NCBI RefSeq assembly: GCF_044324785.1
Contig: NZ_CP172127.1
Direction: 5' to 3' (one strand)
Length of the DNA stretch: 64,000 nt
Source of the DNA: Escherichia coli
GTDB lineage: Bacteria > Pseudomonadota > Gammaproteobacteria > Enterobacterales > Enterobacteriaceae
Below are positions 47-41,424 of this stretch, in pieces. Numbering within the stretch: position 1 is the stretch's first letter; each line of letters starts with the position of its first letter. A program made the translations under genes and the position numbers. The notes beneath the pieces are model-generated. The model made no database searches, was not told the origin of the DNA, and worked only from the letters and a program-made list of their open reading frames with translations.

Positions 47-106
47 GCGCACGGACAGTCCCCTCGCCCCTTCGGGGAGAGGGTTAGGGTGAGGGGAAAA
101 CCGTGC
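47..106. repeat. GC-rich imperfect-palindromic intergenic repeat (boxC-like; family assignment tentative), copy 1 of 3
   Basis: Motif gtcccctcgccccttcggggagagggttagggtgaggggaaaa recurs near-identically at 62581-62625 and in rearranged form at 15603-15706; always intergenic. Confidence 0.6.
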
Positions 107-423
107 CCATACTGACCCGTAAGCGAGTTTGTCAGCAATCTCAAATGATGCCCAAATGGTAACTACAACTCATAACTCTTTGGTGTTAATTGAGGCGATT
201 TTTTAACATTCCCATAAGTTACGCTTATTTAAAGCGTCGTGAATTTAATGGCGTAAATTCCTGCTATTTATTCGTTTGCTGAAGCGATTTCGCAGCATTT
301 GACGTCATCGCTTTTACGTGGCTTTATAAAAGACGACGAAAAGCAAAGCCCGAGCATATTCGCGCCAATGCGACGTGAAGGATACAGGGCTATCAAACGA
401 TAAGATGGGGTGTCTGGGGTAAT

Positions 424-3075: not shown

Positions 3076-3089
3076 TCTTCCTCTCCTGC

Positions 3090-3124
3090 AAACCCTCGCG
3101 CTTTTGCGCGAGGGTTTTCTGAAA
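3090..3124 (+). terminator. rho-independent terminator downstream of ppc
   Basis: Inverted repeat aaaccctcgcgc-ttttg-cgcgagggttt followed by a T-rich tail, directly after the ppc stop. Confidence 0.7.
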
Positions 3125-3257
3125 TACTTCTGTTCTAACACCCTCGTTTTCAATATATTTCTGTCTGCATTTTATTCAAATTCTGGATATCCCTTCAGAT
3201 ATCCTTAAGGAATTGTCGGTACATTCGGCGATATTTTTTTCAAGACAGGTTCTTACT

Positions 3258-4991
3258 ATGCATTCCACAGAAGTCCAGGCTAAACCTCTTTTTAGCTGGA
3301 AAGCCCTGGGTTGGGCACTGCTCTACTTTTGGTTTTTCTCTACTCTGCTACAGGCCATTATTTACATCAGTGGTTATAGTGGTACTAACGGCATTCGCGA
3401 CTCGCTGTTATTCAGTTCGCTGTGGTTGATCCCGGTATTCCTCTTTCCGAAGCGGATTAAAATTATTGCCGCAGTGATCGGCGTGGTGCTATGGGCGGCC
3501 TCTCTGGCGGCGCTGTGCTATTACGTCATCTACGGTCAGGAGTTCTCGCAGAGCGTTCTGTTTGTGATGTTCGAAACCAACACCAACGAAGCCAGCGAGT
3601 ATTTAAGCCAGTATTTCAGCCTGAAAATTGTGCTTATCGCGCTGGCCTATACGGCGGTGGCAGTTCTGCTGTGGACACGCCTGCGCCCGGTCTATATTCC
3701 AAAGCCGTGGCGTTATGTTGTCTCTTTTGCCCTGCTTTATGGCTTGATTCTGCATCCGATCGCCATGAATACGTTTATCAAGAACAAGCCGTTTGAGAAA
3801 ACGTTGGATAACCTGGCATCGCGTATGGAGCCTGCCGCACCGTGGCAATTCCTGACCGGCTATTATCAGTATCGTCAGCAACTAAACTCGCTAACAAAGC
3901 TACTGAATGAAAATAATGCCTTGCCGCCGCTGGCTAATTTCAAAGATGAATCGGGTAACGAACCGCGCACCTTAGTGCTGGTAATTGGCGAGTCGACCCA
4001 GCGTGGACGCATGAGTCTGTACGGTTATCCGCGTGAAACCACGCCGGAGCTGGATGCGCTGCATAAAACCGATCCTAATCTGACCGTGTTTAATAACGTA
4101 GTTACGTCTCGTCCGTACACCATTGAAATCCTGCAACAGGCGCTGACCTTTGCCAATGAAAAGAACCCGGACCTGTACCTGACACAGCCGTCGCTGATGA
4201 ACATGATGAAACAGGCGGGTTATAAAACCTTCTGGATCACCAACCAGCAGACAATGACCGCCCGCAATACCATGCTGACGGTATTTTCGCGCCAGACCGA
4301 CAAGCAGTACTACATGAACCAGCAACGTACGCAGAGTGCGCGTGAATACGACACCAACGTGCTGAAGCCGTTCCAGGAAGTGTTGAAGGACCCTGCACCG
4401 AAGAAACTGATCATCGTTCATCTGCTGGGTACGCATATCAAATACAAATACCGCTACCCGGAAAATCAGGGCAAGTTTGATGACAATACCGATCATGTTC
4501 CACCGGGATTAAGCGCAGAAGAGCTGGAGTCATATAACGATTATGACAACGCTAACCTGTATAACGATCATGTGGTTGCCAGCCTGATTAAAGACTTTAA
4601 AGCAGCAGACCCGAACGGTTTCCTGGTTTACTTCTCTGACCACGGTGAAGAGGTTTACGACACGCCGCCGCACAAAACTCAGGGGCGTAATGAAGACAAC
4701 CCGACGCGTCATATGTACACCATTCCGTTCCTGCTGTGGACGTCAGAAAAATGGCAAGCGACTCATCCGCGTGATTTCTCACAGGATGTTGATCGTAAAT
4801 ACAGCCTGGCGGAATTGATCCACACCTGGTCAGATTTAGCGGGCTTATCTTACGACGGTTACGACCCAACCCGTTCAGTGGTGAATCCGCAGTTCAAAGA
4901 AACTACCCGCTGGATTGGTAACCCGTACAAGAAAAACGCGCTGATCGATTACGACACGCTGCCGTATGGCGACCAGGTAGGTAATCAGTAA
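3258..4991 (+). CDS. eptC: phosphoethanolamine transferase (LPS core modification), sulfatase-family membrane protein
   Basis: ORF 3213-4991; the remembered EptC/YijP N-terminus MHSTEVQAKPLFSWKALGW begins at the internal ATG 3258 (577 aa). Multi-TM N-terminus plus sulfatase-like C-terminus. Confidence 0.9.
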   Translation: MHSTEVQAKPLFSWKALGWALLYFWFFSTLLQAIIYISGYSGTNGIRDSLLFSSLWLIPVFLFPKRIKIIAAVIGVVLWAASLAALCYYVIYGQEFSQSVLFVMFETNTNEASEYLSQYFSLKIVLIALAYTAVAVLLWTRLRPVYIPKPWRYVVSFALLYGLILHPIAMNTFIKNKPFEKTLDNLASRMEPAAPWQFLTGYYQYRQQLNSLTKLLNENNALPPLANFKDESGNEPRTLVLVIGESTQRGRMSLYGYPRETTPELDALHKTDPNLTVFNNVVTSRPYTIEILQQALTFANEKNPDLYLTQPSLMNMMKQAGYKTFWITNQQTMTARNTMLTVFSRQTDKQYYMNQQRTQSAREYDTNVLKPFQEVLKDPAPKKLIIVHLLGTHIKYKYRYPENQGKFDDNTDHVPPGLSAEELESYNDYDNANLYNDHVVASLIKDFKAADPNGFLVYFSDHGEEVYDTPPHKTQGRNEDNPTRHMYTIPFLLWTSEKWQATHPRDFSQDVDRKYSLAELIHTWSDLAGLSYDGYDPTRSVVNPQFKETTRWIGNPYKKNALIDYDTLPYGDQVGNQ

Positions 4992-5054
4992 ATGACCTTT
5001 GTATCGCGTCTGGCGCTATTTGCCGGATGCGATACTGTCACAATGTTTACATCG

Positions 5055-5084
5055 AACTCCCCTCAGGCCACACTTTTCAGGTGG
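5055..5084 (+). terminator. rho-independent terminator downstream of eptC
   Basis: Hairpin aggccacac-ttttca-ggtggcct followed by tttttt. Confidence 0.65.
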
Positions 5085-5139
5085 CCTTTTTTAATAATGC
5101 CAGTTACTGTTTTCCCGTCTACATACCTAAGGGAATAAC

Positions 5140-5991
5140 ATGTATCACGACGTCAGCTATCTGCTCTCCCGCCTGATCAACGGCCCGCTGTCCCTGCGCC
5201 AGATTTACTTTGCCAGCAGTAACGGCCCGGTGCCCGATCTTGCGTATCAGGTCGATTTTCCACGACTGGAAATTGTGCTGGAAGGTGAGTTTGTTGATAC
5301 CGGCGCTGGAGCAACGTTAGTTCCCGGCGATGTGCTGTACGTTCCCGCTGGTGGCTGGAATTTTCCACAATGGCAAGCCCCCGCCACTACCTTTAGCGTG
5401 CTGTTTGGCAAACAGCAACTCGGCTTCAGCGTCGTGCAATGGGATGGCAAACAATATCAAAATCTGGCGAAGCAACACGTCGCCCGACGCGGCCCACGCA
5501 TAGGCTCTTTTCTGCTACAAACGCTCAATGAAATGCAAATGCAGTCGCAGGAGCAGCAAACGGCAAGGCTTATCGTCGCCAGCCTGCTTAGCCACTGCCG
5601 CGATTTGCTTGGCAGCCAAATCCAGACCGCCTCACGCAGCCAGGCACTGTTCGAAGCTATTCGTGATTATATCGACGAACGCTATGCCTCCGCGCTTACC
5701 CGCGAATCTGTCGCACAGGCATTCTATATTTCGCCAAATTACCTCTCGCACCTGTTTCAAAAAACGGGGGCCATTGGTTTTAACGAATACCTGAATCACA
5801 CGCGACTGGAGCACGCTAAGACGTTGTTGAAAGGCTATGACCTGAAGGTAAAAGAAGTGGCGCACGCCTGCGGCTTTGTCGACAGCAACTACTTCTGCCG
5901 TCTGTTTCGTAAAAATACCGAACGCTCACCGTCGGAATATCGTCGGCAGTACCACAGCCAACTGACAGAAAAACCGACTACTCCAGAATGA
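5140..5991 (+). CDS. yijO: AraC-family transcriptional regulator
   Basis: 283-aa ORF with a C-terminal AraC-type HTH region (NYLSHLFQK...SPSEYRRQ); position matches K-12 yijO. 3' end overlaps the convergent frwD by 14 bp. Confidence 0.9.
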   Translation: MYHDVSYLLSRLINGPLSLRQIYFASSNGPVPDLAYQVDFPRLEIVLEGEFVDTGAGATLVPGDVLYVPAGGWNFPQWQAPATTFSVLFGKQQLGFSVVQWDGKQYQNLAKQHVARRGPRIGSFLLQTLNEMQMQSQEQQTARLIVASLLSHCRDLLGSQIQTASRSQALFEAIRDYIDERYASALTRESVAQAFYISPNYLSHLFQKTGAIGFNEYLNHTRLEHAKTLLKGYDLKVKEVAHACGFVDSNYFCRLFRKNTERSPSEYRRQYHSQLTEKPTTPE

Positions 5992-6319
5992 GATGGGTTT
6001 GCTGCGGCGCAGAAAGCACTTTGCGTACCGCGCTCATCACCCGCTGCGGCTCACGCAGGAAAGCGTAGATGCTGCATTGCACATAGCGGCAATGTTCAAA
6101 TCGCTCGGCACCGGCAAGCTCGATATCCGTAATCAACAGAGCAACATCCGCGCGACGGATATCCTCGTCCGCTAAACGATTCTCCGTTCCCAACGCGCCC
6201 TGAGTTTCAATGCTGACGCCCCACTTCTCTAACAGGCACAACTTTTCCAGCCGTTCCGCCGCCATATAAGTATGCGCCACGCCGCTTACGCAGGCGGTTA
6301 CTGCCACCAGGTATGCCAT
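5978..6319 (-). CDS. frwD: PTS fructose-like EIIB component
   Basis: 113-aa ORF MAYLVAVTACVSGVAHTYMAAERLE with the EIIB(Fru) active-site Cys motif (TAC.SGVAHTYMAAE). Confidence 0.9.
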   Translation of the reverse strand: MAYLVAVTACVSGVAHTYMAAERLEKLCLLEKWGVSIETQGALGTENRLADEDIRRADVALLITDIELAGAERFEHCRYVQCSIYAFLREPQRVMSAVRKVLSAPQQTHLILE

Positions 6320-6320
6320 T

Positions 6321-7199
6321 TTAACCTCCCACGGTAACCTGAAATCCGGCCCGTTCTGCCATTTCGCGCATCGTTGCTACATCAGCTGACGACGGCGCAG
6401 GCACCTCTTTCATCGACCATGTTTTCCCCAGCAGGCGGTATTTTGGTTCGCCGTACTGATGAAACGGTAAAAGATGGATCTGCCTGATATTCAGCGGGAT
6501 CAGCACGTCCAGCGCCTGCTGCATATTCTCCCGGCTGAGCGTAAAACCAGGGATCAGCGGTAAACGCGGGATCACGTTGACGCCCTCACTCACCAGCAAA
6601 CGCAGATTCTCCAGCACGCGTGGCAGGTTCATCTTCACCACATCCCGCGCCTGAGTCACGTCCATAATTTTTAAATCGAACAACACTTCATCGCACAATT
6701 TCGCCAGCGGTAACAGCTTGCTGGCTGGCGCGTCTCCGGCAGTTTCAATGGCACATGACACACCCCACAGCCGCAGTCGCTGTAAAAAACGGGTAGCAAA
6801 TTCCGCCTGCATTAACACTTCGCCGCCAGAAAGCGTGACGCCGCCGCCGGACGTGCGAAAGAAAATGTCATCTTTCATCACTTCCCGTTCCAGCGCGTCA
6901 AGGCTGATATCGCGACCAATCCGTTCAAACGCCCCGGAGGGGCATTCATCCGCATCACGCAAACATTTCGCACAGTGCAGACATTTCGCCTCTCTGCGTA
7001 CCGTCTGGATTTTGCCTGAGATCGACTCCGGATTAGCACACCACGGGCAAAGATGCGGACAGCCTTTAAAAAAGACCACCGTACGAATGCCCTCGCCGTC
7101 ATTCAGTGAATAACGCTGAATGTTGAAAATGCGCGCCACATCATCGCGGCGCGTTTCCACAACGTTACAGCTGATGCGCTGTCCGGCGGATGATGTCAT
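6321..7199 (-). CDS. pflC: glycyl-radical enzyme activating protein (radical SAM; pyruvate formate-lyase 2 activase)
   Basis: ORF track gives 315 aa; the remembered PflC start MTSSAGQRISCNVVETRRDD corresponds to ATG at 7199 (292 aa). Radical-SAM Cys cluster CPHLCPWC present. Overlaps the pflD 3' end. Confidence 0.9.
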   Translation of the reverse strand: MTSSAGQRISCNVVETRRDDVARIFNIQRYSLNDGEGIRTVVFFKGCPHLCPWCANPESISGKIQTVRREAKCLHCAKCLRDADECPSGAFERIGRDISLDALEREVMKDDIFFRTSGGGVTLSGGEVLMQAEFATRFLQRLRLWGVSCAIETAGDAPASKLLPLAKLCDEVLFDLKIMDVTQARDVVKMNLPRVLENLRLLVSEGVNVIPRLPLIPGFTLSRENMQQALDVLIPLNIRQIHLLPFHQYGEPKYRLLGKTWSMKEVPAPSSADVATMREMAERAGFQVTVGG

Positions 7200-9462
7200 C
7201 CTGGATCTCCTTCGACAGTTCGACAAAGAAGGCGCTGTATCCGGCAACGCGCACCACCAGCCCGGCATAATCTTGTGGGCGCTGTTGCGCTTCCCGCAAC
7301 GTGTCGGCGTTCACCACGTTAAACTGAATGTGTTGTAACTTAAGCTGGGTAAATGCCCGTAAGAAGTCGGCCAGTTTGCGTAATCCCGCTTCACCTTCCA
7401 GGGTCGCCGGAGTGAATTTCACGTTCAGCAACGTACCGTTAGACAGCAGCGTATTATCGAGCTTACTGACTGACTTCAGTACCGCCGTTGGCCCTTGTGC
7501 GTCCTGACCCAGCATAGGTGACAAGCCGCCGTCTGCCAGTTGTTCCCCGGCAAAACGACCGTCTGGCGTCGCGCCAACCACCGATCCCAACGGGACGTGA
7601 GCAGAAACGGTATACGATCCCGGCGTGAAGTAGCCGCCGCGCGGGTTTTGGTATTTTTCCACTTCTTTGCAGTAGTGGCGTAACAGTTCGGCGCTAATGT
7701 TATCCACCTCGTCGATATCGTTACCGTATTTCTCGAAGCGGTTAATTAAGCGAGCGCGGACTTTTTCGCCTTCTGGCGTTGCGAAGTTGGCTTTTAATAC
7801 CGACAGCAATTCGTCAAAACTTAAACGCTGTTGATCAAAAACCATCCCTTTCAACGCATGGAGAGAATCGCTCAGGTTGGCGATACCAATTCCCTGTACG
7901 CCGGAGAAGTTATAACGCGCGCCGCCATCGGTAATATCGCGACCTTTTTCCAGACAATCGCTGATAAAAGACGAGAGCAGCGGTACAGGTGCCCAGTCGC
8001 GATGGCCGATATCACAAATATTGCTGCCCTCTACCATCAGGGTGATGTAGTGGCTGATCTTGGCGCGGATCTGCTCCAGTAAACCTTCATAAGTCAGCGC
8101 AGCATTGCCTTCATTTTCATGCAGGCAGATTTCCATCACTTTCAGCAGATTAAACATCGCGATGTCATGCAAGCCGTAGGTTCTGCCGGGAATAGATAAT
8201 TCCACACAGCCCACTACGGAATAGTCGCGCGCATCTTCCAGCGAAACGCCACGGTTGAGGAACGCTGGTACCACCACTTCATCGTTAAAGATTTGCGGAA
8301 TGCCGGTGCCGAGGCGAATGGTTTCTGCGGTTTTCATCAGGAACGGCGTGTCGATCAAGGCGTTAGTTCGCACACCGAGGTTCGGTTGCGGTAATTGCAC
8401 GCTTTGATAAGCGTCAAGGCAGAGGAACGAAAGCACGTTCACCGCGCTACGTCCGTTTTCGGTTAACCCGCCGAGCAGTGCGGTATAGCCGGTCGGGAAA
8501 CCTGCGAAATAACGCGCACTGCTGGTGGAGCGCAACAGCACGATGTCGTTGCATTTCACCCATAAAGATTCGAGCAGTTCTTTCAGGAACGCCGGATCTT
8601 CGCCCTGGGTTAATGATGCCTGATAGAACGGCAACATATACTGGTCGAAGCGCCCCAACGATAGCGAACTGGCGTTGGATTCGTATTGCAGAATGATGTT
8701 CATGTACCAGAATAACTGGCACGCCTGCCAGAACGTCTGCGGCTTATGTTCGGCGTTATGGCGAGAGATCTCCGCAATAGTCAGCAGTTCTTCGCGACGC
8801 TGGGCATCTGTGCAGTTTGCCGCCATCGTTTCCGCCAGTTCGGCGTAACGCAAAATGTGTTTCTGCGAGGCTTCGAGCAGTAACAGCGCTGCCTGATAAA
8901 AGTGATTCTCCGGCTGTTGCTGACAATGTTGCTGCATTTGCGCTACCAGCTCACCCAGCCCGTGATTCAGCAGGCGCGGGTAATCAATAATAATGTGCCC
9001 CTGGCCTTTATCCGTCTGGTTGATGCTGAAAATCTGCGTGCTGGTCGCGGCTTTTACTTCATCCGTCATCTGCCCGTTAATGAAATCTTTCATCGAACGT
9101 TTTTCCCAGTACGGGAACAACTCTTCGCGGTAGATACGTTTATCTTCTTCGCTGATAGCAAAGCGGTCCTGCGGACGCGTCGGGAATTGATCCAGCTCTT
9201 TCAGCAGCCAGTAAGGGTCCATTTCCGGCGACATAATCCCGGCGCGTGGTTTTACGGTGCGGTTACCGGCAATCAGTTCTTCATCACGAATCGAAATTTC
9301 AACATGTTCAAGGATATACGCTGTTGCTTTCGCCCGGCGCAATATCACCGGTTCGCCTTCGGTTTGCCGATGGCTGGCGGTATAAAGCAGCGCCCGCTCC
9401 AGCGAGATTTCACGGGTATTGGCAAACAGTGCAGTTTTGAGGCGAGAGATACGATTCGTCAT
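7165..9462 (-). CDS. pflD: glycyl radical enzyme (putative formate acetyltransferase 2), substrate unknown
   Basis: 765-aa ORF MTNRISRLKTALFANTREISLERALLY; C-terminal glycyl-radical motif region VRVAGYSAFFVEL. Confidence 0.95.
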   Translation of the reverse strand: MTNRISRLKTALFANTREISLERALLYTASHRQTEGEPVILRRAKATAYILEHVEISIRDEELIAGNRTVKPRAGIMSPEMDPYWLLKELDQFPTRPQDRFAISEEDKRIYREELFPYWEKRSMKDFINGQMTDEVKAATSTQIFSINQTDKGQGHIIIDYPRLLNHGLGELVAQMQQHCQQQPENHFYQAALLLLEASQKHILRYAELAETMAANCTDAQRREELLTIAEISRHNAEHKPQTFWQACQLFWYMNIILQYESNASSLSLGRFDQYMLPFYQASLTQGEDPAFLKELLESLWVKCNDIVLLRSTSSARYFAGFPTGYTALLGGLTENGRSAVNVLSFLCLDAYQSVQLPQPNLGVRTNALIDTPFLMKTAETIRLGTGIPQIFNDEVVVPAFLNRGVSLEDARDYSVVGCVELSIPGRTYGLHDIAMFNLLKVMEICLHENEGNAALTYEGLLEQIRAKISHYITLMVEGSNICDIGHRDWAPVPLLSSFISDCLEKGRDITDGGARYNFSGVQGIGIANLSDSLHALKGMVFDQQRLSFDELLSVLKANFATPEGEKVRARLINRFEKYGNDIDEVDNISAELLRHYCKEVEKYQNPRGGYFTPGSYTVSAHVPLGSVVGATPDGRFAGEQLADGGLSPMLGQDAQGPTAVLKSVSKLDNTLLSNGTLLNVKFTPATLEGEAGLRKLADFLRAFTQLKLQHIQFNVVNADTLREAQQRPQDYAGLVVRVAGYSAFFVELSKEIQDDIIRRTAHQL

Positions 9463-28308: not shown

Positions 28309-28917
28309 ATGAAAATCAGGCTACTGATCCTCAGCCTGCTGGTTTCTGTGCCTGCATTTGCCTGGCAACCACAAACCGGCGACATCATCTTTCAGATCTC
28401 TCGCTCATCGCAAAGTAAAGCGATCCAACTGGCGACCCATTCCGATTACAGCCACACCGGTATGCTGGTGATACGCAACAAAAAGCCCTACGTTTTTGAA
28501 GCGGTCGGCCCGGTGAAATACACCCCGCTCAAGCAGTGGATTGCCCATGGTGAAAAGGGCAAATACGTTGTTCGCCGCGTTGAAGGCGGACTGAGTGTTA
28601 AACAACAGCAAAAACTGGCGCAAACGGCAAAACGTTATCTCGGCAAACCGTATGATTTCAGCTTCTCATGGAGCGACGATCGCCAGTACTGTTCGGAAGT
28701 GGTGTGGAAGGTTTACCAGAATGCGCTGGGAATGCGCGTGGGCGAACAGCAAAAGTTGAAAGAGTTCGATCTGAGTAACCCGCTGGTTCAGGCAAAGCTC
28801 AAAGAACGTTACGGCAAGAATATTCCGCTTGAGGAAACGGTGGTCTCGCCACAAGCCGTTTTCGACGCGCCACAACTCACCACGGTTGCCAAAGAGTGGC
28901 CGCTGTTTTCGTGGTAA
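28309..28917 (+). CDS. yiiX: putative lipid-binding hydrolase (NlpC/P60-like, DUF830), signal peptide
   Basis: 202-aa ORF MKIRLLILSLLVSVPAFAWQPQTGDIIFQ; synteny downstream of metJ. Confidence 0.9.
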   Translation: MKIRLLILSLLVSVPAFAWQPQTGDIIFQISRSSQSKAIQLATHSDYSHTGMLVIRNKKPYVFEAVGPVKYTPLKQWIAHGEKGKYVVRRVEGGLSVKQQQKLAQTAKRYLGKPYDFSFSWSDDRQYCSEVVWKVYQNALGMRVGEQQKLKEFDLSNPLVQAKLKERYGKNIPLEETVVSPQAVFDAPQLTTVAKEWPLFSW

Positions 28918-29021
28918 TGGATGATAAAAAAATAATTCCCGCCGTAGTCTGTTTGTTGCTTTGTAGTTGCACGACCTTTCCGCAAGCTGTCGCTCCGGTA
29001 AACGGTGATGCCTCCAATTAG
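28917..29021 (+). pseudogene. possible 5' fragment of a small lipoprotein-like gene truncated by the IS1-like element
   Basis: ATG overlaps the yiiX stop (taATGg); encodes MDDKKIIPAVVCLLLCSCTTFPQAVAPVNGDASN (hydrophobic stretch plus Cys) then runs into the IS1 left end at 29004. Short and speculative. Confidence 0.25.
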
Positions 29022-29766
29022 TTGAATTAAGGATATAATACTCGCTTCTAAGGTTGTTTCATGGTCACAGTTAACCTTCATTGTCCCCGTTGCCAGTCCG
29101 TTTAGGTTTACCGTCACGGGCAGAACCCCAAAAGACATGATCGATTCCGCGGCCGTGACTGTCACCGGGTATTTCAGCTCAGTTACTGTTACGAGCCCCG
29201 TAAACCGGGAGTTAAAGACCAAATCGCTGAAATGGCTTTCAACGGTGCCGGGGTTCGCTATACTGCCCGTACGCTGAAAATCGGCATTAATACAGTCATC
29301 CGAACTTTAAAAAACTCTCGCCACGAAGAATAACGTCATCCCCGGTCGCTCATGCTGATGTGGCACTCAACTGCGAACTTAGTCAGCAATGGAGCTTTGT
29401 CGGCAGTAAAGCGCGACAGCACTGGCTCTGGTACGTGTACAACACGAAAACTGGTGGTGTTCTGGCCTACACTTTTGGCCCCCGGACTGATGAAACCTGT
29501 CGTGAATTGCTGGCGCTGCTTACCCTTTTACCATCGGCATGTTGACCACTGACGAATGGGGTAGTTACACCAGAGAGTTACCAAAGGAGAAGCATCTGAC
29601 TGGTAAGATTTTTACTCAGCACATTGAGCGTAACAATCTGACCCTGAGAACCCGAATCAAACGTCTGGCCCGCAGAACCATCTATTTCTCGCGTTCTGTA
29701 GAACTTCATGAAAAAGTCATCGGTGCTTTTATCGAAAATATATGTTCTACTGATTGGAGTCATCAC
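29004..29766 (+). mobile_element. IS1-family insertion sequence, degenerate (insA disrupted, insB frameshifted)
   Basis: Left end ggtgatgcctccaa and right end ttggagtcatcac resemble IS1 terminal inverted repeats; ~763 bp; internal ORF fragments resemble InsB. No obvious flanking target-site duplication. Confidence 0.8.
29360..29763 (+). pseudogene. insB: IS1 transposase insB, frameshifted
   Basis: InsB-like peptides in two different frames (29360-29545 WSFVGSKARQHWLWYVY...; 29539-29853 DEWGSYTRE...IERNNLTLRTRIKRLARRTIYFSRSVELHEKVIG); the upstream insA frame is interrupted by a stop. Confidence 0.75.
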
Positions 29767-29866
29767 TCTTCTGATGAGCTTTCCTTGGATGATTACCAGA
29801 CTGAATACACAGCCAAAGATTTTTACCTCATTCTGCTCTTTTTTCTCAAATGACATATATTATATT

Positions 29867-30145
29867 TTACATCATATTCATAGGCATATGACATTCCCCC
29901 GCCCCCATTATGTCATTGTGGGTTGATGTTGGGCTTTCATAAAAAAATACATCTTTTTTTGAACTAGCATTAATTATATTTACTTTATACATTAAAATAT
30001 TTTCTCCATCTGGAAATATTTTAGCCACACAATATAAAGCAGCTAAATCCGAATTACTTAAAAATATATTGTCATCACTCATAACTCCAGCCATTAAATG
30101 ACTGGAGACTAAAGCAAGGAAATAACAACATTGTATTGCCTTCAT
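29867..30145 (-). CDS. candidate Rhs immunity protein (RhsI) for the orphan CT module
   Basis: Small AT-rich ORF immediately downstream of the orphan rhs-CT stop (30206); internal start at 30145 (MKAIQCCYFLALVSSHLMAG...) preceded by SD aagggag; ORF track's longer version starts at 30181. Function inferred from position only. Confidence 0.55.
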   Translation of the reverse strand: MKAIQCCYFLALVSSHLMAGVMSDDNIFLSNSDLAALYCVAKIFPDGENILMYKVNIINASSKKDVFFYESPTSTHNDIMGAGECHMPMNMM

Positions 30146-30205
30146 TTTAATTACTCCCTTGCCTGATAATTGTAACTCCATTCCCTTTAGCTTTGGGATT
30201 ATATT

Positions 30206-31636
30206 TTAGATAGGTGTTATTTGGTGTTCCCAAGTAACTACTGTATTCTTTTTTTCCATTCCATTCATATAAGAATTCGTTAAATCTTTGCTTGAAAAAT
30301 TTAGACTATCATAAACATCATTTTCTTTTGTTACTTTATTTCCTTTATCGTCAGAGTAAAAACCGTGAGTGTGATAATCGCCTACTCTCTCTGAACCTTC
30401 AGGGCGTTTTATATTTCGCAAGTCTACACTATCATTATCATTTGAACTTATCGGATTCATGGGGGAATATTCACCTTGCTTCTTACATATTAGTCCACCA
30501 TATTCTTTATTCTCGTTAATTGATTCTCCATTACACATTGCCAATGCAAATATTCCAATATCATCTATATTTTTTGATTTAAATTCATATAATCCTAATG
30601 GATCCATGCCATTCACCGGGCTCAGCGGATATGTATACAGGTTCCATCCCCCCTTCAGCCCAATCGGATCCTGAGTGATATACCGCCCCTGCAGCGGGTC
30701 ATAATAGCGGTGGCGGTTGTAATACAGGCCGGACTCCTCATCATACTGCTGCCCCGGCAGGCGGATGAGCTGCTGCAGTTGATGCGGGTTCTCTTCATTC
30801 AGCAGATTGCCCCACTCATCGTATTCTGCGCACCATTCTGTTGCCCCTTCCGTGCTGACAAGCGCCAGCGGCAGGCCGCGATGGTCGCAGTGGTACAGGT
30901 GGATTTTTCGCGCCGGCGTGTACACCGGGTCCATCTGGTTTTGCATCTGCTCCACCGTCAGGCCGCACGATGCCAGCCAGCGGCGGCTTTCCTCACTCAC
31001 CCGGTCAGCCAGGATTTCACTTTCCAGCCGGTCGAGCATCTGCACCAGCACCGGCGGGAACACCACACTGCCACCGTCTTCACCGCCGGACTGCTGAAGC
31101 GCATCCGCCAGGCTGCGGCGCTGCGTTTTCGCCAGCTCACCGGTGGCGGTTTCGACCCTGATGAGTGGCGTGAAGCTCCCCGGCTGATAAACCGTCTGGA
31201 TGCGGGTTCTGTCGTTCTGTATCGTGGTCAGCCGGTCGCCGTCCCAGCCGTACCAGGTCACTTCCGGTTTCCGTGACAGCGACATCCAGCCCGTCAGGTC
31301 CCGTTCACGCCGCCACACCCGTTTTGCCACCCTGCGGCCCAGCGGGTCGTAAAGATAGCGACTTTCGACCAGCGGCTCTGCATATTGTGTCCGCGTGTAG
31401 TGCACCAGCCGGTGCTGACTGTCGTAATGGTACCGGTGAGTCCGCTCATCATCCGTGCGGATAACCCCTTCCGGGATGAGGTCGGTTTTCTCTGTCAGCC
31501 TGCCGTGACGGTCATACCGGTAAAGATAGTGCGCGTCACGGGCGATACGGTTATCCGGCCACATGCTGAGGGTGCTGTCCGGGTGCAGCTCCGGGTCGGG
31601 CAGGCGGTTGCCTGCCGGGTCCGTGGCATACGGGAT
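30206..31636 (-). CDS. orphan Rhs C-terminal module: 3' part of the rhs core plus a distinct C-terminal toxin domain (5'-truncated gene)
   Basis: ORF 30206-31564 (452 aa); Rhs-core homology continues upstream to ~31636 with an in-frame stop beyond. Core ends with ...[28 protein letters not shown] (DPxGL), followed by a 127-aa unique AT-rich C-terminal domain ([10 protein letters not shown]...[12 protein letters not shown]...). Confidence 0.8.
30642..31636. repeat. ~1 kb direct repeat (rhs core 3' region), copy A, near-identical to 34963-35957
   Basis: Base-by-base comparison of the two intervals shows the same sequence with only a handful of substitutions at a constant offset of 4321 bp; the ORF track shows identical antisense peptides at 31273-31464 and 35594-35785. 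Confidence 0.9.
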
Positions 31637-32039: not shown

Positions 32040-33330
32040 GTCCAATGTTATTTCCGGAGCACTTCATCTTACATGTTTCTAAAGAATCATTAGACCAGTC
32101 AGGGCAAGATTACGAAAGCCCGCTCCCCGCAAGGACTGACGCGAGATAGTTTCTGTCCATGGCTGCTTTTCGCATCTTACGTCTTAACCCTGCCTTGAAT
32201 ACCTTATCATTCGTCAAAATATTAATAGCAATGTGCCGTATCCCTGAAAATAATTCTGCTGCGTTTCCTCTTCTTATTTTGCAGTCGTCTTCATTCATTA
32301 CCACGTCCAGACGCCAGTGCAGCTTATTCTCCACGTGCCAGTGGTTTCGGATTGCTGTGGCGAACTTCTCAGCGGTTAAATCAGCAGAACTGATATAATA
32401 TCTGACCGTCATTTCTGGCTCTTTCTTTTATTCTGCTATTATTGACCGAAAGGAGACTGCCACGCATAATTTTTCAGTCCTTTCTATTCAAATGTAAAAT
32501 CAATAAGTTCATCAGCGACATCGCAAACAATATGAAGACGGATTTCTTCTCTGCCGTGACTCTTTTCACTAATTGCGTAACTGTCATGCTCTGGATTATT
32601 TAATTCTTTCAGCGGAAATGTTTCCTCAAAGGCTTTATTCAACCGCCCCTGGTTTCCTTTTACAGCGAATAAGTAATCACCACCCTGTTTTTGTATCTTC
32701 TCTGCAATATCTTTCTGGCAACCTATCGCATCAGTTGTGATGATTTTCCCTTTAATATACAAAATGTTAAGAAGTTCAGGGATAGCTGTGATCTCATTAG
32801 ATTTCTCATCCGTCCTGATCTGCCCCAGGACCAGAATGTGCATTGTTGAGAACGCACTAATAACATGAATCGCTCCCCTTCGGCGACTCTTATCATAAGA
32901 GTGTCGGAGCATTTTTCCATCAATTGCAATGACGTCTTTATCATCTGAAGAATGGCAGTCACGCATCCAGTTAATAAAGCACTCATGAAATTTTGCAGGG
33001 CTGATACAGGATACAACTCTGGCAATGGTATCGTGGACAGGAATACCATTTTCAAAATCACCGTATTGTTTTAAAAAATCGAGATGTGTTTCCCCAAAAT
33101 CCTCTATATCTTCCCAACCTTCTGCACCCGAAATAACGGCACAAATAGTCAACAGTAGAATATCCGATAATTTATGTTCCACTTTCCAGGCTTGTCTGTA
33201 ATCGGGGATAATAGAAATATGCTCCATCAATTTTTTAAGTTCCATTTTGTTCTCCTTAATTATGTAAGGAGTATTTGATCATGTATAAGCAATAAAAAAC
33301 AGCTTTAGGTAATGAGGAATATCTCAATTT
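32040..33330 (-). mobile_element. H-repeat (H-rpt) element, ISAs1-family, with a frameshifted transposase; boundaries approximate
   Basis: Two consecutive minus-strand ORFs in different frames (32484-33245 [55 protein letters not shown]...; 32110-32412 [44 protein letters not shown]...) together resemble the ~378-aa H-repeat-associated ISAs1-family transposase of E. coli Rhs elements. Confidence 0.8.
32110..33245 (-). pseudogene. ISAs1-family (H-repeat) transposase, split by a frameshift near 32413-32486
   Basis: N-terminal 253-aa and C-terminal 100-aa pieces are in different reading frames separated by ~70 bp. Confidence 0.8.
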
Positions 33331-34421: not shown

Positions 34422-37400
34422 CTATCTTATATCACTGGGTTTTTCTGGCGTACCTTGCATATTAGAAATGGGGTGCCCAGATGGCCCATATGTTATCCAA
34501 TTACCAAGGTCTTTTGTTGTTATAGCCATTAGATCCTTATTTGAATTAAGGTTCGTTGGTGCTGTTAGCACTGTATCCATTTTTAACTTACCATTAGTTC
34601 CTCGCCCCCACCACGTCCATAGCGTGTCAGGTCCTATTACATTTGTATGTAACTCTTTAGCTAATTGGCTAGCAAATGAATTTTGTCCTTTACCTGTATT
34701 ACAAGAAAATAACCAAACTGTCATCCCATCTTTATAATTCCCATCAAATTTAATTAGATATGCTAGATCTTTAGCTGTCATGATACTGCGCGTTGCGGAT
34801 TCAATAGATGTGGGGGTACCATGCCCCCCGATTGTGAAAACGCCTGGGATATTAATCTCATCAGCTACAGAATGGATAAGATCACTTTCGGGGTATAAAT
34901 TTATATCAACCAAACCTTGCGGATCTACATTTATGACCGGATTCAACGGATACTGATAAAAATTCCATCCCCCCTTCAGCCCAATCGGATCCTGAGTGAT
35001 ATACCGCCCCTGCAGCGGGTCATAATAGCGGTGGCGGTTGTAATACAGGCCGGACTCCTCATCATACTGCTGACCCGGCAGGCGGATGAGCTGCTGCAGC
35101 TGGTGCGGGTTCTCTTCATTCAGCAGGTTGCCCCACTCATCGTATTCTGCGCACCATTCTGTTGCCCCTTCCGTGCTGACAAGCGCCAGCGGCAGGCCGC
35201 GATGGTCGCAGTGGTACAGGTGGATTTTTCGCGCCGGCGTGTACACCGGGTCCATCTGGTTTTGCATCTGCTCCACCGTCAGGCCGCACGATGCCAGCCA
35301 GCGGCGGCTTTCCTCACTCACCCGGTCAGTAAGGATTTCACTTTCCAGCCGGTCGAGCATCTGCACCAGCACCGGCGGGAACACCACACTGCCACCGTCT
35401 TCACCGCCGGACTGCTGAAGCGCATCCGCCAGGCTGCGGCGCTGCGTTTTCGCCAGCTCACCGGTGGCGGTTTCGACCCTGATGAGTGGCGTGAAGCTCC
35501 CCGGCTGATAAACCGTCTGGATGCGGGTTCTGTCGTTCTGTATCGTGGTCAGCCGGTCGCCGTCCCAGCCGTACCAGGTCACTTCCGGTTTCCGTGACAG
35601 CGACATCCAGCCCGTCAGGTCCCGTTCACGCCGCCACACCCGTTTTGCCACCCTGCGGCCCAGCGGGTCGTAAAGATAGCGACTTTCGACCAGCGGCTCT
35701 GCATATTGTGTCCGCGTGTAGTGCACCAGCCGGTGCTGACTGTCGTAATGGTACCGGTGAGTCCGCTCATCATCCGTGCGGATAACCCCTTCCGGGATGA
35801 GGTCGGTTTTCTCTGTCAGCCTGCCGTGACGGTCATACCAGTAAAGATAGTGCGCGTCACGGGCGATACGGTTATCCGGCCATGCGCTGAGGGTGCTGTC
35901 CGGGTGCAGCTCCGGGTCGGGCAGGCGGTTGCCCGCCGGGTCCGTGGCATACGGGATGCGGATATCAAGGTTCGCTGCCGTGGTGTGGACGCCGGTCAGC
36001 CTGCCGGTGTCGCTGTAGCTGTAACTCCGGGTCTGGCGCGGGCTGCTGATGCGGATGAGTTCGCCGTTGTCGTTCCAGGTGTAATCGCGGTCATACTGCA
36101 GGCTGTTCAGGTGCTGGCTCTGTAACTGCCCGGCAGGGGTGTAAGCGGTGGTGAGTTCATAACGGCCGAAGCTGCGCAGCGTTTCCCGGTGCAGGCGGTC
36201 GCGGGTGTACTCCACCAGCGGTGTGTCGCCGAGTTTCATGCCTGCCAGCCAGCCGCTGCCGTAAGTCAGCCATTCCACGGCGGGCAGGCTGTCCGGTATA
36301 CAGCGGTTCGCCAGCCCCTGCGCGTTGTACGCATGTCTGGTCTCATGCTGCCAGACCAGTGCTTCCGTCTGCGGGTGATGCACCGTCTGGCGCTCACCGG
36401 TCAGGCGGCCTTTCTCATCATACCCGTAATGCACCGTCACCCGGTGGCCTTCGCTGAGATGGCTGATGCCTGTCAGCCAGCCGCGTTCGTCATACTGCCA
36501 CTGCTCTGCAGGTTCACCCTTCACGGTACGCTGCGTGATGCGGTCTGCTTCGTCATAGTGCCAGTGGGTGACCAGCCCCTCATCCTCGCTGCGGATAAGT
36601 TTGCCGGTCAGGTCGTGGTGATAACGCTGTGTACGGCCGTCAAAGCCGGTTTCCTGTATCAGACGGTCAAGTACATCGTAACGGAAGGTGGTGTGGCTGC
36701 CGTTTTCACTGGTCAGGCGGATGACCCGTCCGGCAGCATCGTATTCCATACTGCGCGTCAGACCACCCTGCGTGGTACGGATGGCCTTTCCCCACGTATC
36801 GTACTGTGTCCCGTTTCTGCTGCCGTCCGGGGCAATGACGGCGGTCAGGTCACCGGCGGCGTTGTATTCATACCGCGTTTCATGGCCCTGCATGTCTTTC
36901 ACCGCAATTAACTGTCCACGGCTGTCGTATGCGCGGTACTGGCTCAGGCCTTCCTCGCGGTGCACCGCCGTCACCTGACCAAAACGGTCATGGTCATAAC
37001 GGGTTACATAACCGGAACAGTCAGTGACGGTCAGCAACTGACCGTAACGGCTCCATGTCATGGTTTTCCGGCTGCCGGTGGCATCTTCCGTTGCGCAGGG
37101 TAAGTCACTGTGTGGATTATCATAACGGTAGCGGGTGATATCGCCGTTGTGTGCGGTTTCCTGAATCAGACGGCCGGATTCATCATATTCCCGGCGCAAC
37201 TCCAGCCCGTCAGTCCCGGTGGCTGACGTTAACTGGTTGTGGTGGTTATAGTAAAACGCCGATGCCCTGCCATCCGGTGTGGTGATGCGCGTGATGAGTC
37301 CCGTCACCACATCCGGGCTGTACTCAGTCGTCCGGCCTGCGGCATCCGTCTGTGCCTTAAGCCTGCCCACCGCGTCAAACTGACTCTGCGTGACGCTGCC

Positions 37401-38651
37401 GTCCGCGTGTTCCTTTTTCACCACCCGCTTCAGCCCGCCTTCGCCCTGCGTGTGCAGGACTTCACGGCGGTCCAGGCTGTCGGTGATGGTGATGTGGTCT
37501 TTCTCATACTGATACGTGTAGCTTAAGCCTGCCGGGTTTAGCTGTTCTGTCACCCGCCCGTCACTGTCGTAACGGTAACGGATTTCCGGCCGGCCCGTGT
37601 GACGGTGCGCCACCATCCGGCCCCGGTATTTATCATCGTAAGTAAAGCTGCGCACCTGTGTGCCGCTGCGGTCATACACCGCCGCCAGTTCGCCGCGTGG
37701 CGTCCAGCCATAGCGTACCAGCGGCGCGGCTGGCAGGTTGTCCGGATATTCCGGGTCGTGCGTCAGCCACACGGCAGACAGACGGATGCCGTTGTCCCGG
37801 CCATATTCGGTGTAACCCGGCAGGGTATCAGGAAAAGCGGACGGTTCCGCCCCGCCGGAAATGGCCTGCTGCCGGGCCTCTTCTGCCCGCAACGCCTGCG
37901 TGGTCAGTACCAGCCGGAAGTGACGCCCGGCACCATCCGTCACGCCGGTGATTTCGCCGCTGAATTCGCCGCCAGCCTCACGGTGGAACGTCTGTGTGCG
38001 CCCGAAGCGGTCCACCAGCCCGGTCAGTACCCGGTACGGCGGCAGTGGCGCAGGCAGCACCTCATCCGCCTCCGGCACCCGCTCACACCAGCCGAGTACC
38101 CACCACGGCCCCTGCGGACTGTTCGTCGCCAGATAACGATGCGGACTCAGGCGAAGCTCTTCCGGCAGCGCCTGCCAGAGTGCGGCCAGCCGGTGACCTT
38201 CATCCAGTTTCGCCACGCCGCCGCGCACCAGCCAGAGTGACTCGCTGCGGCTGTAACCGTCCTCACCGGGAAACAGGTGCTCAAAATACAGGCTTCTGCC
38301 GCCGTTATCACTGAGTATCAGTGTGTTATCGCGCAGCTGTAAGCGGATATCCGCAGGCATTTTCCAGCCGGGGCCGAGGCTCCCCACCGGCGCGGGCGTT
38401 TTTGTCCGGTAACTGCTGTAGGTGCGGGAGAGGATGAACGGCAGCGGGCCGGGCAGGGCAAGGTCGGTTTCTCCGGGAAGGACCTTCGCACCGAGCAGCG
38501 GATTGACCGGATGGCCGGACGTCACCCCGCCGGGGCACACCGAACAGGCCACGCCGGTGGGGGCACCAATACGTACCCCGGCTGAACCCTGAACAATGCT
38601 ACCGCCATACTGCGTCATGTCGCCCTGACGCGCCGCCGGTTTTCCGCTCAT
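34422..38651 (-). CDS. rhs: full-length Rhs protein (PAAR-like N-terminal domain, YD-repeat core, DPxGL, unique C-terminal toxin domain)
   Basis: 1409-aa ORF; N-terminus [42 protein letters not shown] typical of E. coli Rhs; many YD/RYxYD repeats; core ends ...[11 protein letters not shown]; 162-aa C-terminal domain ([10 protein letters not shown]...FTIGGHGTP...[10 protein letters not shown]...) not recognised by me. Confidence 0.95.
34963..35957. repeat. ~1 kb direct repeat (rhs core 3' region), copy B, near-identical to 30642-31636
   Basis: See copy A; lies within the main rhs gene. Confidence 0.9.
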
Positions 38652-38770
38652 CGTAAAATCCTTTTGAAATAAATAAGAACCAGAAGCCTAGCGCCAGTCA
38701 ACAACAGGAAATGATAATGAGTTAACACCCCGGAATTTTTCAGAATTTATAAAAGGCAAATTACAGGCAC

Positions 38771-38799
38771 AAAAAAAGCGCCGTGCGGCGCTTTTTTCG
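38771..38799 (-). terminator. rho-independent terminator downstream of rpmE
   Basis: aaaaaaagcgccg-tgc-ggcgcttttttc hairpin flanked by A- and T-runs (potentially bidirectional); the 3' end of rpmE is at 38811. Confidence 0.7.

Positions 38800-39066: not shown

Positions 39067-41424
<2,358 letters not shown>

Follow-up and report, generated by a model that had tools for sequence, protein, structure and literature searches.

With a probability that we put at roughly 85%, the degenerate insertion sequence (IS) described here is a fossil IS1H standing at the distal edge of an RhsF island, where it marks a rearrangement junction beside the 27-codon remnant of a lipoprotein gene and would be the outcome of island integration, IS insertion and an adjacent deletion, in that order. 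It lies in a 64,000-nucleotide stretch of Escherichia coli DNA (the window). The region under study, 28917-29866, is larger than the element, including also a 34-codon open reading frame (ORF) on its left and the 99-bp spacer before dsORF-f3 on its right. The locus reads as follows:

28309..28917, plus strand: yiiX, the conserved left neighbor, a YiiX family permuted papain-like enzyme (NF007458, 356 bits, cut-off 216; PGAP annotation of orthologous records)
28917..29021, plus strand: 34-codon ORF, made of the 5' remnant of a TIGR02117/DUF2459 gene (27 codons, to 29003) and of 6 codons and a stop (GDASN-stop) from the IS1H left inverted repeat (alignment to MB56 L004 6219-6305; tblastn; lipobox)
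29004..29767, plus strand: IS1H, 764 bp, a degenerate member of the IS1 family (Sakai repeat_region 'IS1H Family: IS1'; PGAP pseudogene name; IS1N and IS1A identities)
29768..29866: 99-bp spacer from the IS right end to the dsORF-f3 stop, in E. coli always joined to IS1H
29867..30181, minus strand: dsORF-f3, an RHS element protein downstream of an orphan Rhs C-terminal tip (PGAP naming; no Pfam or NCBIfam family match)
30206..31564, minus strand: orphan Rhs core end with a DUF4329 C-terminal tip (NF041261 positions 937-1261; PF14220)
34422..38651, minus strand: main RhsF-locus Rhs core protein, 1409 aa (NF041261, 2626 bits, cut-off 2000)
38764..38797: rpmE-side terminator hairpin CAGGCACAAAAAAAGCGCCGTGCGGCGCTTTTTT, at which the variable slot ends on the right and the K-12-like, MB56-like and RhsF alleles come together

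Inside the element, these parts can be told apart:

29004..29026, plus strand: left terminal inverted repeat (IRL), GGTGATGCCTCCAATTAGTTGAA
29061..29333, plus strand: insA pseudogene, with TAG at 29103-29105 (elsewhere CAG) and GGC in place of the zinc-ribbon Cys31 codon at 29151-29153
29303..29749, plus strand: insB' pseudogene, with one nucleotide lost from a C run after 29523 and another from an A run after 29734, the invariant Asp-Glu being replaced at 29382-29387 by AGTCAG (Ser-Gln)
29307..29315, plus strand: programmed -1 frameshift motif of IS1, TTAAAAAAC, retained and identical in IS1A, IS1N and all IS1H copies
29745..29767, minus strand: right terminal inverted repeat (IRR), its terminal base 29767 changed from C to T in the window/N3 lineage only

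Members of the IS1 family carry imperfect terminal inverted repeats of about 23 bp that start with GGTGATG. The sequence-only reading had reported IS1-like terminal repeats, and these are indeed present: the arms at 29005-29026 and 29745-29766 are 22 nt long and 86% complementary, they align with the repeats of IS1A and IS1N, and a scan of the 64-kb window for GGTGATGMCTCCAATYAGT gives just two hits, which face each other, against none expected by chance. The length of 764 bp falls in the family range (about 0.76-0.77 kb). Homology by alignment and profile is equally strong, as the frame-repaired product of 231 aa reaches 244.5 bits with the IS1 family transposase model NF033558, whose cut-off is 100, and covers all three Pfam IS1 domains end to end, i.e., Zn_ribbon_InsA (PF03811, 66 bits), HTH_Tnp_IS1 (PF12759, 89 bits) and DDE_Tnp_IS1 (PF03400, 226 bits).

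The isoform name rests on the annotations of Sakai (NC_002695.2) and PGAP. The orthologous Sakai repeat_region is identical at 752 of 764 nt (98.4%), and it shares with the window the locus, the length, the boundaries and the non-duplicated flanks; PGAP names the orthologs 'IS1-like element IS1H family transposase', pseudogene. Among the closest known elements is IS1N, the iso-IS1 of Shigella dysenteriae, which together with intact 231-aa relatives such as ISEc30 is collinear throughout (79% nucleotide and 84-85% amino acid identity) and agrees with the window element in its inverted-repeat core GGTGATGCCTC.AATTAGTTGAA, in its A6C frameshift motif and in how its domains are ordered. In contrast to IS1N, which is 766 bp long, intact, multicopy and flanked by 8-bp duplications, IS1H is 2 nt shorter, lacks a duplication and is substituted in both the active site and the zinc ribbon. 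IS1A, the classical IS1 of E. coli K-12, has the same insA, A6C motif, insB' and inverted repeats of about 23 bp with the same start, but the window element is only 52% identical to it in nucleotides, and a blastn search of the window with IS1A gave no match at E below 1e-3. At the protein level, the frame-repaired product is 84-87% identical to intact transposases of the IS1N type (231 aa), and 40% identical to IS1A InsAB'. From these comparisons, we provisionally assign the element to IS1H, an IS1N-like lineage of the IS1 family. The 'IS1H' of PMC7193553 was considered as the window isoform and rejected, being copy H of classical IS1 in K-12.

Both lesions that had been read from the letters, a stop in insA and an insB split between frames, were recovered by comparison. 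The TAG in insA is codon 15; tblastn with IS1A InsAB' matched three frames (29061-29321, 29303-29497 and 29524-29736; E 2.9e-42). One frame change is the normal programmed one, at 29307, in a position homologous to that of IS1A and IS1N, and insB' runs on in the -1 frame after the A6C motif, as in the frame architecture of the family. The other is the 1-nt deletion after 29523. Together with the deletion after 29734, it makes up the two 1-nt gaps that separate IS1H from the 766-bp IS1N; the second gap deletes the insB' stop, so that the ORF reads beyond the IS to 29853. The changes of Cys31 to Gly in the zinc ribbon and of Asp108-Glu109 to Ser-Gln in the DDE region fall in columns conserved in at least 90% of aligned sequences. 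These four lesions (two insB deletions and two replacements) were found in all eight copies sampled at the locus, and a 92%-identical copy at another locus also has the frameshift after 29523. The six other copies at the locus, like the outgroups, all have CAG at codon 15 of insA, which confines the stop to the window/N3 lineage. This lineage shows five extra derived substitutions relative to Sakai IS1H, including the stop and the last base of IRR; a sixth, at 29048, is present in the window only. No intact IS1H transposase was found among 5.8 billion sequences, the nearest intact proteins being at most 87% identical. Judged from its sequence, the IS1H copy is predicted to be dead, unable to make transposase and with no function of its own left. 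The distribution of the lesions indicates that transposase inactivation predates the spread of the allele, and that the insA stop and the coupled start codon of the neighboring ORF are recent in the window lineage.

The ORF that runs into the IS left end had been suspected to be a truncated lipoprotein-like gene, to be refuted by the lack of a homolog downstream of yiiX in other genomes, and the comparison with MB56 supports this proposal. There, a full-length homolog lies directly downstream of yiiX, the TIGR02117 family protein WP_000720774.1 of 207 aa (TIGR02117, 225 bits, cut-off 131; PF09601, 157 bits), and these scores belong to the intact MB56 ortholog, the window fragment being too short for an HMM score of its own. 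Positions 28926-29009 match residues 2-29 of the MB56 protein by tblastn (93% identity, E 1.9e-12). The window DNA is collinear with MB56 L004 up to base 6305, a breakpoint common to all RhsF strains, in which query coverage ends at this same base. The lipobox PAVVCLLLCSC ends in Cys16 of the MB56 protein and Cys18 of the window ORF, and Cys16 is conserved in the orthologs of Escherichia, Phytobacter, Enterobacter, Klebsiella and Budvicia. The lipoprotein call was made from a signal peptide plus a lipobox ending in Cys, by a regular expression based on the PROSITE PS51257-type rule, and the product of the truncated gene is accordingly termed a predicted lipoprotein. Compared with WP_000720774.1, the 34-codon ORF keeps the signal peptide, the lipobox and the first 11 mature residues (27 of 207 codons), whereas the papain-like DUF2459 domain (residues 36-196) is wholly missing. 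Tblastn and alignment found no sequence past residue 29 in the window, from which the 3' 543 nt of the gene are absent. This 3' part, whose end reads ...TAACGATTGT, occurs in 289 E. coli genomes, of which 288 have the intact arrangement yiiX-TIGR02117-rpmE (288 of 5426 E. coli genomes, B lineage included). The synteny metB-metJ-yiiX-TIGR02117-rpmE-priA extends to Phytobacter, Enterobacter and two Klebsiella species.

Translational coupling of the ORF to yiiX, which had also been proposed, stood only in part. The ORF does open at taATGg and overlaps the yiiX stop, but most RhsF strains, like the intact gene, have their native start at ATGATG or ATGATA, 4-7 nt past that stop. The overlap was created by a 1-nt deletion near the native start, shared by the window and N3, which brings the overlapping ATG into frame by chance.

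The RhsF island fills the space from yiiX to rpmE. To the left of IS1H are the 27 codons that survive of the ancestral gene, once tightly paired with yiiX, its other 180 codons being lost; to the right lies unrelated, AT-rich Rhs-tip DNA. The GC content of the Rhs element (0.59-0.67 for the core, 0.30-0.41 for the tips) and the NF041261 score agree with its assignment to this class. The yiiX-rpmE interval exists in E. coli as three alleles, one empty (about 54%), one with IS1H-RhsF (about 40%) and one that keeps the ancestral lipoprotein gene (about 5%; the B lineage belongs here); in other taxa, different cargo is found between TIGR02117 and rpmE, as in a hot spot. The IS1H junction is kept unchanged in 2163 genomes. 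Among 5426 E. coli genomes, megablast and sensitive blastn revealed neither an RhsF/dsORF-f3 allele without IS1H nor paralogs of the right flank, and no genome of this set has an intact TIGR02117 gene plus an Rhs element. A minus-strand ORF at 29856-29578 (Sakai ECs_5769) was considered as a gene truncated from the Rhs side and rejected, as it matches only partial same-locus E. coli hypothetical proteins.

We take the locus to be RhsF, from the PGAP label dsORF-f3; RhsF and dsORF-f3 reportedly come from work of the Hill laboratory in the 1990s. The Rhs locus between yiiX and rpmE/priA has been described as locus 11 by Jackson et al. 2009 (PMC2935791) and as RHS 10, rhsW7, in E. coli W (PMC3032704). 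The published locus has the same slot, the same dsORF-f3 module and the same IS1H at the distal edge, the window being a longer version with the main rhs, an ISAs1 (H-rpt) pseudogene and the orphan tip, of which 179 genomes share at least 80% of the length. The 'RhsF/RhsFI' of EHEC (PMC7618764) was rejected as the window locus, since it is a different one, S-loop 44.

The absence of a flanking direct repeat, already remarked upon from the sequence, holds: the 9-bp flanks of IS1H, CCGGTAAAC on the left and CTTCTGATG on the right, are identical at 3 of 9 bases, without a target duplication, and a published table lists this pair for the IS1H of a different strain (PMC6963479). Active IS1N copies taken for comparison do have an 8-bp duplication. 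Such a duplication of 8-9 bp marks an undisturbed insertion event and not family membership, and its absence here points to a later rearrangement.

The earlier alternative had been between an IS-mediated deletion and an old insertion, and the missing 543 nt favor the former, since they make the IS a rearrangement junction and exclude a plain insertion with eroded repeats. Indeed, a simple old insertion of IS1H into the TIGR02117 gene, with decay of the 9-bp target duplication by point mutation, has next to no chance of being correct. The element is old and mutated, and 3 of 9 flank bases are shared, as such decay might leave them; however, the rest of the gene should then follow immediately on the right of the IS, where Rhs-tip DNA stands instead, and TIGR02117 sequence past residue 29 is found neither in the window nor in E. 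coli beyond the 289 genomes with the intact-gene allele. This reading is thus refuted, as the 3' portion of the gene is missing on the right of the IS. We consider an adjacent IS-mediated deletion to be the likeliest cause of the junction. In the order of events that we infer, the Rhs island would have integrated in the space that separates the lipoprotein gene from the rpmE terminator, IS1H would have inserted close to the distal end of the island, and an IS1-type adjacent deletion from the IS left end would have removed everything up to codon 27 of the TIGR02117 gene, also taking away one copy of the target duplication. With its IS already inactive, the allele would then have reached about 40% of E. 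coli; the insA nonsense codon, the mutated terminal base and the loss of 1 nt where the remnant ORF starts would have been added later in the window lineage. Adjacent deletion is known behavior of IS1, and the deletion step rests on it, since the 5426 genomes yielded no intermediate allele, be it RhsF lacking IS1H or RhsF alongside an intact gene. Against the deletion model, if the IS was already defective on arrival, it could not have promoted the deletion without help in trans.

IS1H could also have acted as the vehicle, the Rhs segment having arrived already joined to it (e.g., by a cointegrate or one-ended event), or as a recombination substrate, with a crossover between an IS1H resident in the TIGR02117 gene and one beside the incoming Rhs and a second crossover on the rpmE side. 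This is unlikely, even though IS1H is fused to dsORF-f3 at the same base in every E. coli genome that has dsORF-f3, the island and IS diverge by 1-2% between the window and typical strains against about 4% for yiiX and priA on either side, in keeping with a joint horizontal spread of island and IS, and missing direct repeats would be expected here too. No second IS1H copy or inverted-repeat remnant occurs at the other island boundary (both matches of the repeat pattern in the window are those of the element, with none at 38700-38763), and no donor arrangement was found. Furthermore, the right boundary of the island is the point where the MB56-like and K-12-like alleles rejoin common sequence, which fits ordinary insertion at a hot spot.

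Co-option of the remnant, either as a terminator or insulator that separates the yiiX transcript from the convergent Rhs immunity genes or as a yiiX-coupled 34-codon ORF made as a small lipobox-bearing peptide, seems highly improbable. The constancy of the junction over 2163 genomes and the intact signal peptide and lipobox of the remnant ORF would agree with it, but promoter-like and terminator-like sites are no commoner than in shuffled sequence, there is no Rfam match, the IS collects lineage-specific substitutions as well as secondary insertions of IS1F and a nonsense codon, and the start of the remnant ORF differs by lineage (ATGATG, ATGATA or the deletion). The junction would rather be retained because it is linked to the Rhs island. 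We likewise see only a slight chance that the remnant as a whole is not inert, with the ORF giving a lipopeptide of about 17 residues or the dead IS keeping the yiiX transcript apart from the convergent Rhs immunity genes as a fixed insulator, or that a transposase-defective IS1H lineage has been moved in trans by another IS1-family enzyme, as the frameshift after 29523 shared with the 92%-identical copy elsewhere could mean.

The fossil IS1H and its Rhs locus are already known from public annotation and the literature and constitute an ordinary feature, and the finding matters little beyond annotation. For the latter, the DNA called 'intergenic' on the left side of IS1H forms the 5' end of a real gene and is left unannotated by PGAP in the RhsF-allele records examined. 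Finally, YiiX has a conserved partner gene, whose product is predicted to have a papain-like fold too and which is missing from K-12, and this may bear on studies of YiiX function.

The 34-codon open reading frame at 28917-29021, whose ATG start overlaps the yiiX stop codon, is the 5' end of a gene that breaks off at the insertion sequence IS1H. Homology between the window and K-12-like genomes ends at 28918, one base past the yiiX stop codon, and restarts at 38757-38764, at the rpmE-side terminator. This slot holds a 624-bp gene in a minority of genomes; in strain MB56, its product is annotated as "TIGR02117 family protein" (WP_000720774.1, 207 aa) and reaches 225 bits against TIGR02117 (cut-off 131) and 157 against DUF2459. 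The window and MB56 are collinear from yiiX through base 81 of this gene, where IS1H starts. Consequently, the reading frame comprises 27 native codons followed by GDASN and a stop from the left terminal inverted repeat (IR). Its protein is 93% identical to residues 2-29 of the TIGR02117 protein and keeps the signal peptide and lipobox (PAVVCLLLCSC), whose cysteine is conserved in orthologues from five other genera, which justifies the label "lipoprotein-like" given by the sequence-only reading. That reading had also suspected a truncated gene, correctly, and had pointed to the region downstream of yiiX in IS-free strains, some of which (e.g., MB56) indeed have the intact TIGR02117 gene there. 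The coupling to yiiX through taATGg that it proposed stands only in part: the overlapping ATG is present, but the native start is ATGATG, 4-7 nt past the yiiX stop (ATGATG or ATGATA in most strains of the RhsF allele, that is, with yiiX, remnant, IS1H, and dsORF-f3 in this order). The overlapping ATG comes into the gene's frame through one base lost at the start in the window and in E. coli N3 (NZ_CP031609), the closest complete genome across the finding (99.9% identity). The identity of the DNA left of IS1H is the only point that we did not find stated elsewhere.

Features of the locus in the window
28309-28917, yiiX, within the gene order metL-metB-metJ-yiiX of this E. coli chromosome segment
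29061-29333, insA, with a TAG at 29103-29105
29307, IS1 programmed frameshift motif TTAAAAAAC, retained
29578-29856, minus strand, 92-codon open reading frame antisense to insB, starting in the spacer (hypothetical protein ECs_5769 in the Sakai annotation)
32110-33245, minus strand, ISAs1-family (H-rpt) transposase split between two open reading frames (253 aa and 100 aa), in the Rhs island, with the main rhs gene on one side and the orphan tip on the other

The PGAP annotation of N3 runs from yiiX to an "IS1 family transposase" pseudogene, which is frameshifted and has an internal stop, then to "RHS element protein dsORF-f3" and finally to an RHS core protein. The minus-strand frame at 29578-29856 matched only partial E. 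coli database entries from the same locus and is probably spurious.

Alignment with reference elements placed the ends of IS1H at 29004 and 29767 (764 bp), and the orthologous stretch in O157 Sakai is a repeat_region labeled "IS1H Family: IS1." The inverted repeats (29005-29026 and 29745-29766) span 22 nt with 86% complementarity, and a degenerate IR pattern matched the 64-kb window only twice, at both IS ends, with 0 matches expected by chance. An IS1A InsAB' query matched by tblastn in three separate frames (29061-29321, 29303-29497, and 29524-29736; E 2.9e-42); thus, insB is broken by more than the normal frameshift. The 9-bp flanks, CCGGTAAAC and CTTCTGATG, reveal no target duplication. 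Every part of the earlier observation is therefore real, including the terminal repeats, the insA stop, the split insB, and the missing direct repeat, and its interpretation is supported. IS1H at the yiiX-rpmE Rhs locus is already known: it has been tabulated in another E. coli strain with exactly these flanks, at a site termed intergenic (PMC6963479), and the Rhs locus between yiiX and rpmE/priA has been described as locus 11 (PMC2935791) and as RHS 10, rhsW7, in E. coli W (PMC3032704), a strain with one IS1H copy. The 'RhsF/RhsFI' of EHEC (ECs0604, S-loop 44) is a different locus, and in papers on K-12 the name 'IS1H' refers to copy H of classical IS1 rather than to the present isoform.

The homology to IS1 also held on alignment. 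At the nucleotide level, IS1H shares 79% identity with IS1N of Shigella dysenteriae and with an Enterobacter relative, and 52% with IS1A of K-12, a similarity undetected by blastn. Restoring three lesions (the TAG and two single-base deletions) yielded a 231-aa product scoring 244.5 bits on NF033558 (IS1 family transposase, cut-off 100) and spanning Zn_ribbon_InsA, HTH_Tnp_IS1, and DDE_Tnp_IS1 end to end. The database sequences closest to it are intact 231-aa transposases of Shigella, Klebsiella, Enterobacter, Izhakiella, and others (84-87% identity; labeled IS1N, ISEc30, or IS1 family), and this search returned no closer intact transposase. Strains DG342-2 and FY10 carry a second degenerate copy, 92% identical, elsewhere in the genome (L007 2501-3264; L008 2501-3261), where it adjoins transketolase and ProQ/FinO gene fragments.

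Against the 766-bp IS1N, IS1H has exactly two single-base gaps. One, after 29523 in a C run, shifts the insB' frame; the other lies in an A run, after 29734, and eliminates the natural stop, and the frame leaves the element and extends to 29853. The first is also present in the second copy, through either inheritance of the defect or an independent slip in the C run. Protein alignment shows the zinc-ribbon Cys31 replaced by Gly and Asp108-Glu109 by Ser-Gln, in columns at least 90% conserved among the aligned sequences; Asp108 is presumably the first residue of the DDE triad in IS1 transposase. These four lesions occur in all eight locus copies compared (window, N3, Res13, Sakai, O128:H27 90-9281, STK77-E, RIVM_C039227, and B-3008), so the transposase had lost its activity before the sampled alleles diverged from their common ancestor. 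Only the window and N3 carry the insA TAG, a C-to-T change at 29767 (the last base of the right IR), and TAA to TGA at 29752; the insA stop noted by the sequence-only reading is a late addition.

Phytobacter diazotrophicus, an Enterobacter species, Klebsiella spallanzanii, and K. oxytoca all have the order metB-metJ-yiiX-TIGR02117-(cargo)-rpmE-priA; a cryptic Escherichia lineage also has the locus, on a contig ending short of rpmE. The TIGR02117 proteins are 62-85% identical to that of E. coli. The gene is thus ancestral at this position. Among 5426 complete E. coli genomes, 2163 have the RhsF arrangement, 288 have the intact gene (B/BL21 strains included), and the rest are K-12-like, with a slot of 13 bp. 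The 3' part of the gene occurs in only 289 genomes, essentially the set with the intact gene. The tight pairing of yiiX with the TIGR02117/DUF2459 lipoprotein gene, 4-8 nt apart, is conserved across Escherichia, Phytobacter, Enterobacter, and Klebsiella (window 28309-29003; MB56 locus L004 5610-6848; comparison loci L009-L013 ~3400-4620); the second member is missing in K-12 and kept in the B lineage. Both products have predicted papain-like folds, DUF2459 being classed as such (PMC10318531) and YiiX as a permuted papain-like enzyme (PMC3142127). Some strains carry IS1F inside IS1H (matches H49-H51 and H122-H125), and strain 8600 (H161) carries IS1A inside an otherwise intact TIGR02117 gene; both kinds of secondary IS insertion arose independently at this locus.

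The interval between TIGR02117 and the rpmE terminator looks like an integration hot spot. Its cargo differs by taxon (window boundary 38764; L009 4586-5438; L010 and L011 4620-7650): the window has the Rhs island, Escherichia sp. MOD1-EC7003 has a gene for an unrelated secreted protein, and Phytobacter and Enterobacter have ~3 kb. At the right boundary (38764), the three E. coli alleles all rejoin at one base. Divergence from typical E. coli (Sakai, K-12-like, MB56) is ~4% in yiiX and priA (39154-41424) and 1-2% in IS1H and the Rhs tip (29004-31564), and metJ and the rpmE side are identical; this mosaic suggests that the island recombined or spread horizontally.

The sequence-only reading had offered an IS-mediated deletion or an old insertion. 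A simple insertion with decayed repeats is excluded, since the sequences on either side of IS1H do not adjoin each other in the ancestral allele. The likeliest route is that the Rhs island would have integrated at the hot spot separating the lipoprotein gene from the rpmE terminator, that IS1H would then have inserted close to its distal end, and that an adjacent deletion would have proceeded from the left end of IS1H. Classical IS1 promotes adjacent deletions, and such an event would remove one duplication copy, which fits the absent target duplication. The deletion step is inferred, as no intermediate between the ancestral and RhsF alleles turned up among the 5426 genomes. The main rival holds that the Rhs DNA arrived with IS1H already attached or that IS1H acted as a recombination substrate; the lower divergence of island and IS relative to yiiX and priA favors it, but the opposite boundary of the island has no second IS end. 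Nothing supports a functional role for the remnant: sites resembling promoters and terminators occur about as often as chance predicts, Rfam gave no match, and the IS1F insertion is tolerated in some strains.

A search of E. coli genomes found no paralogue of the right flank. In all RhsF-allele matches listed, coverage of the TIGR02117 gene breaks off at one identical base, and all dsORF-f3 genomes have IS1H joined at the same point. IS1H marks a junction that formed once, ahead of the spread of the allele.
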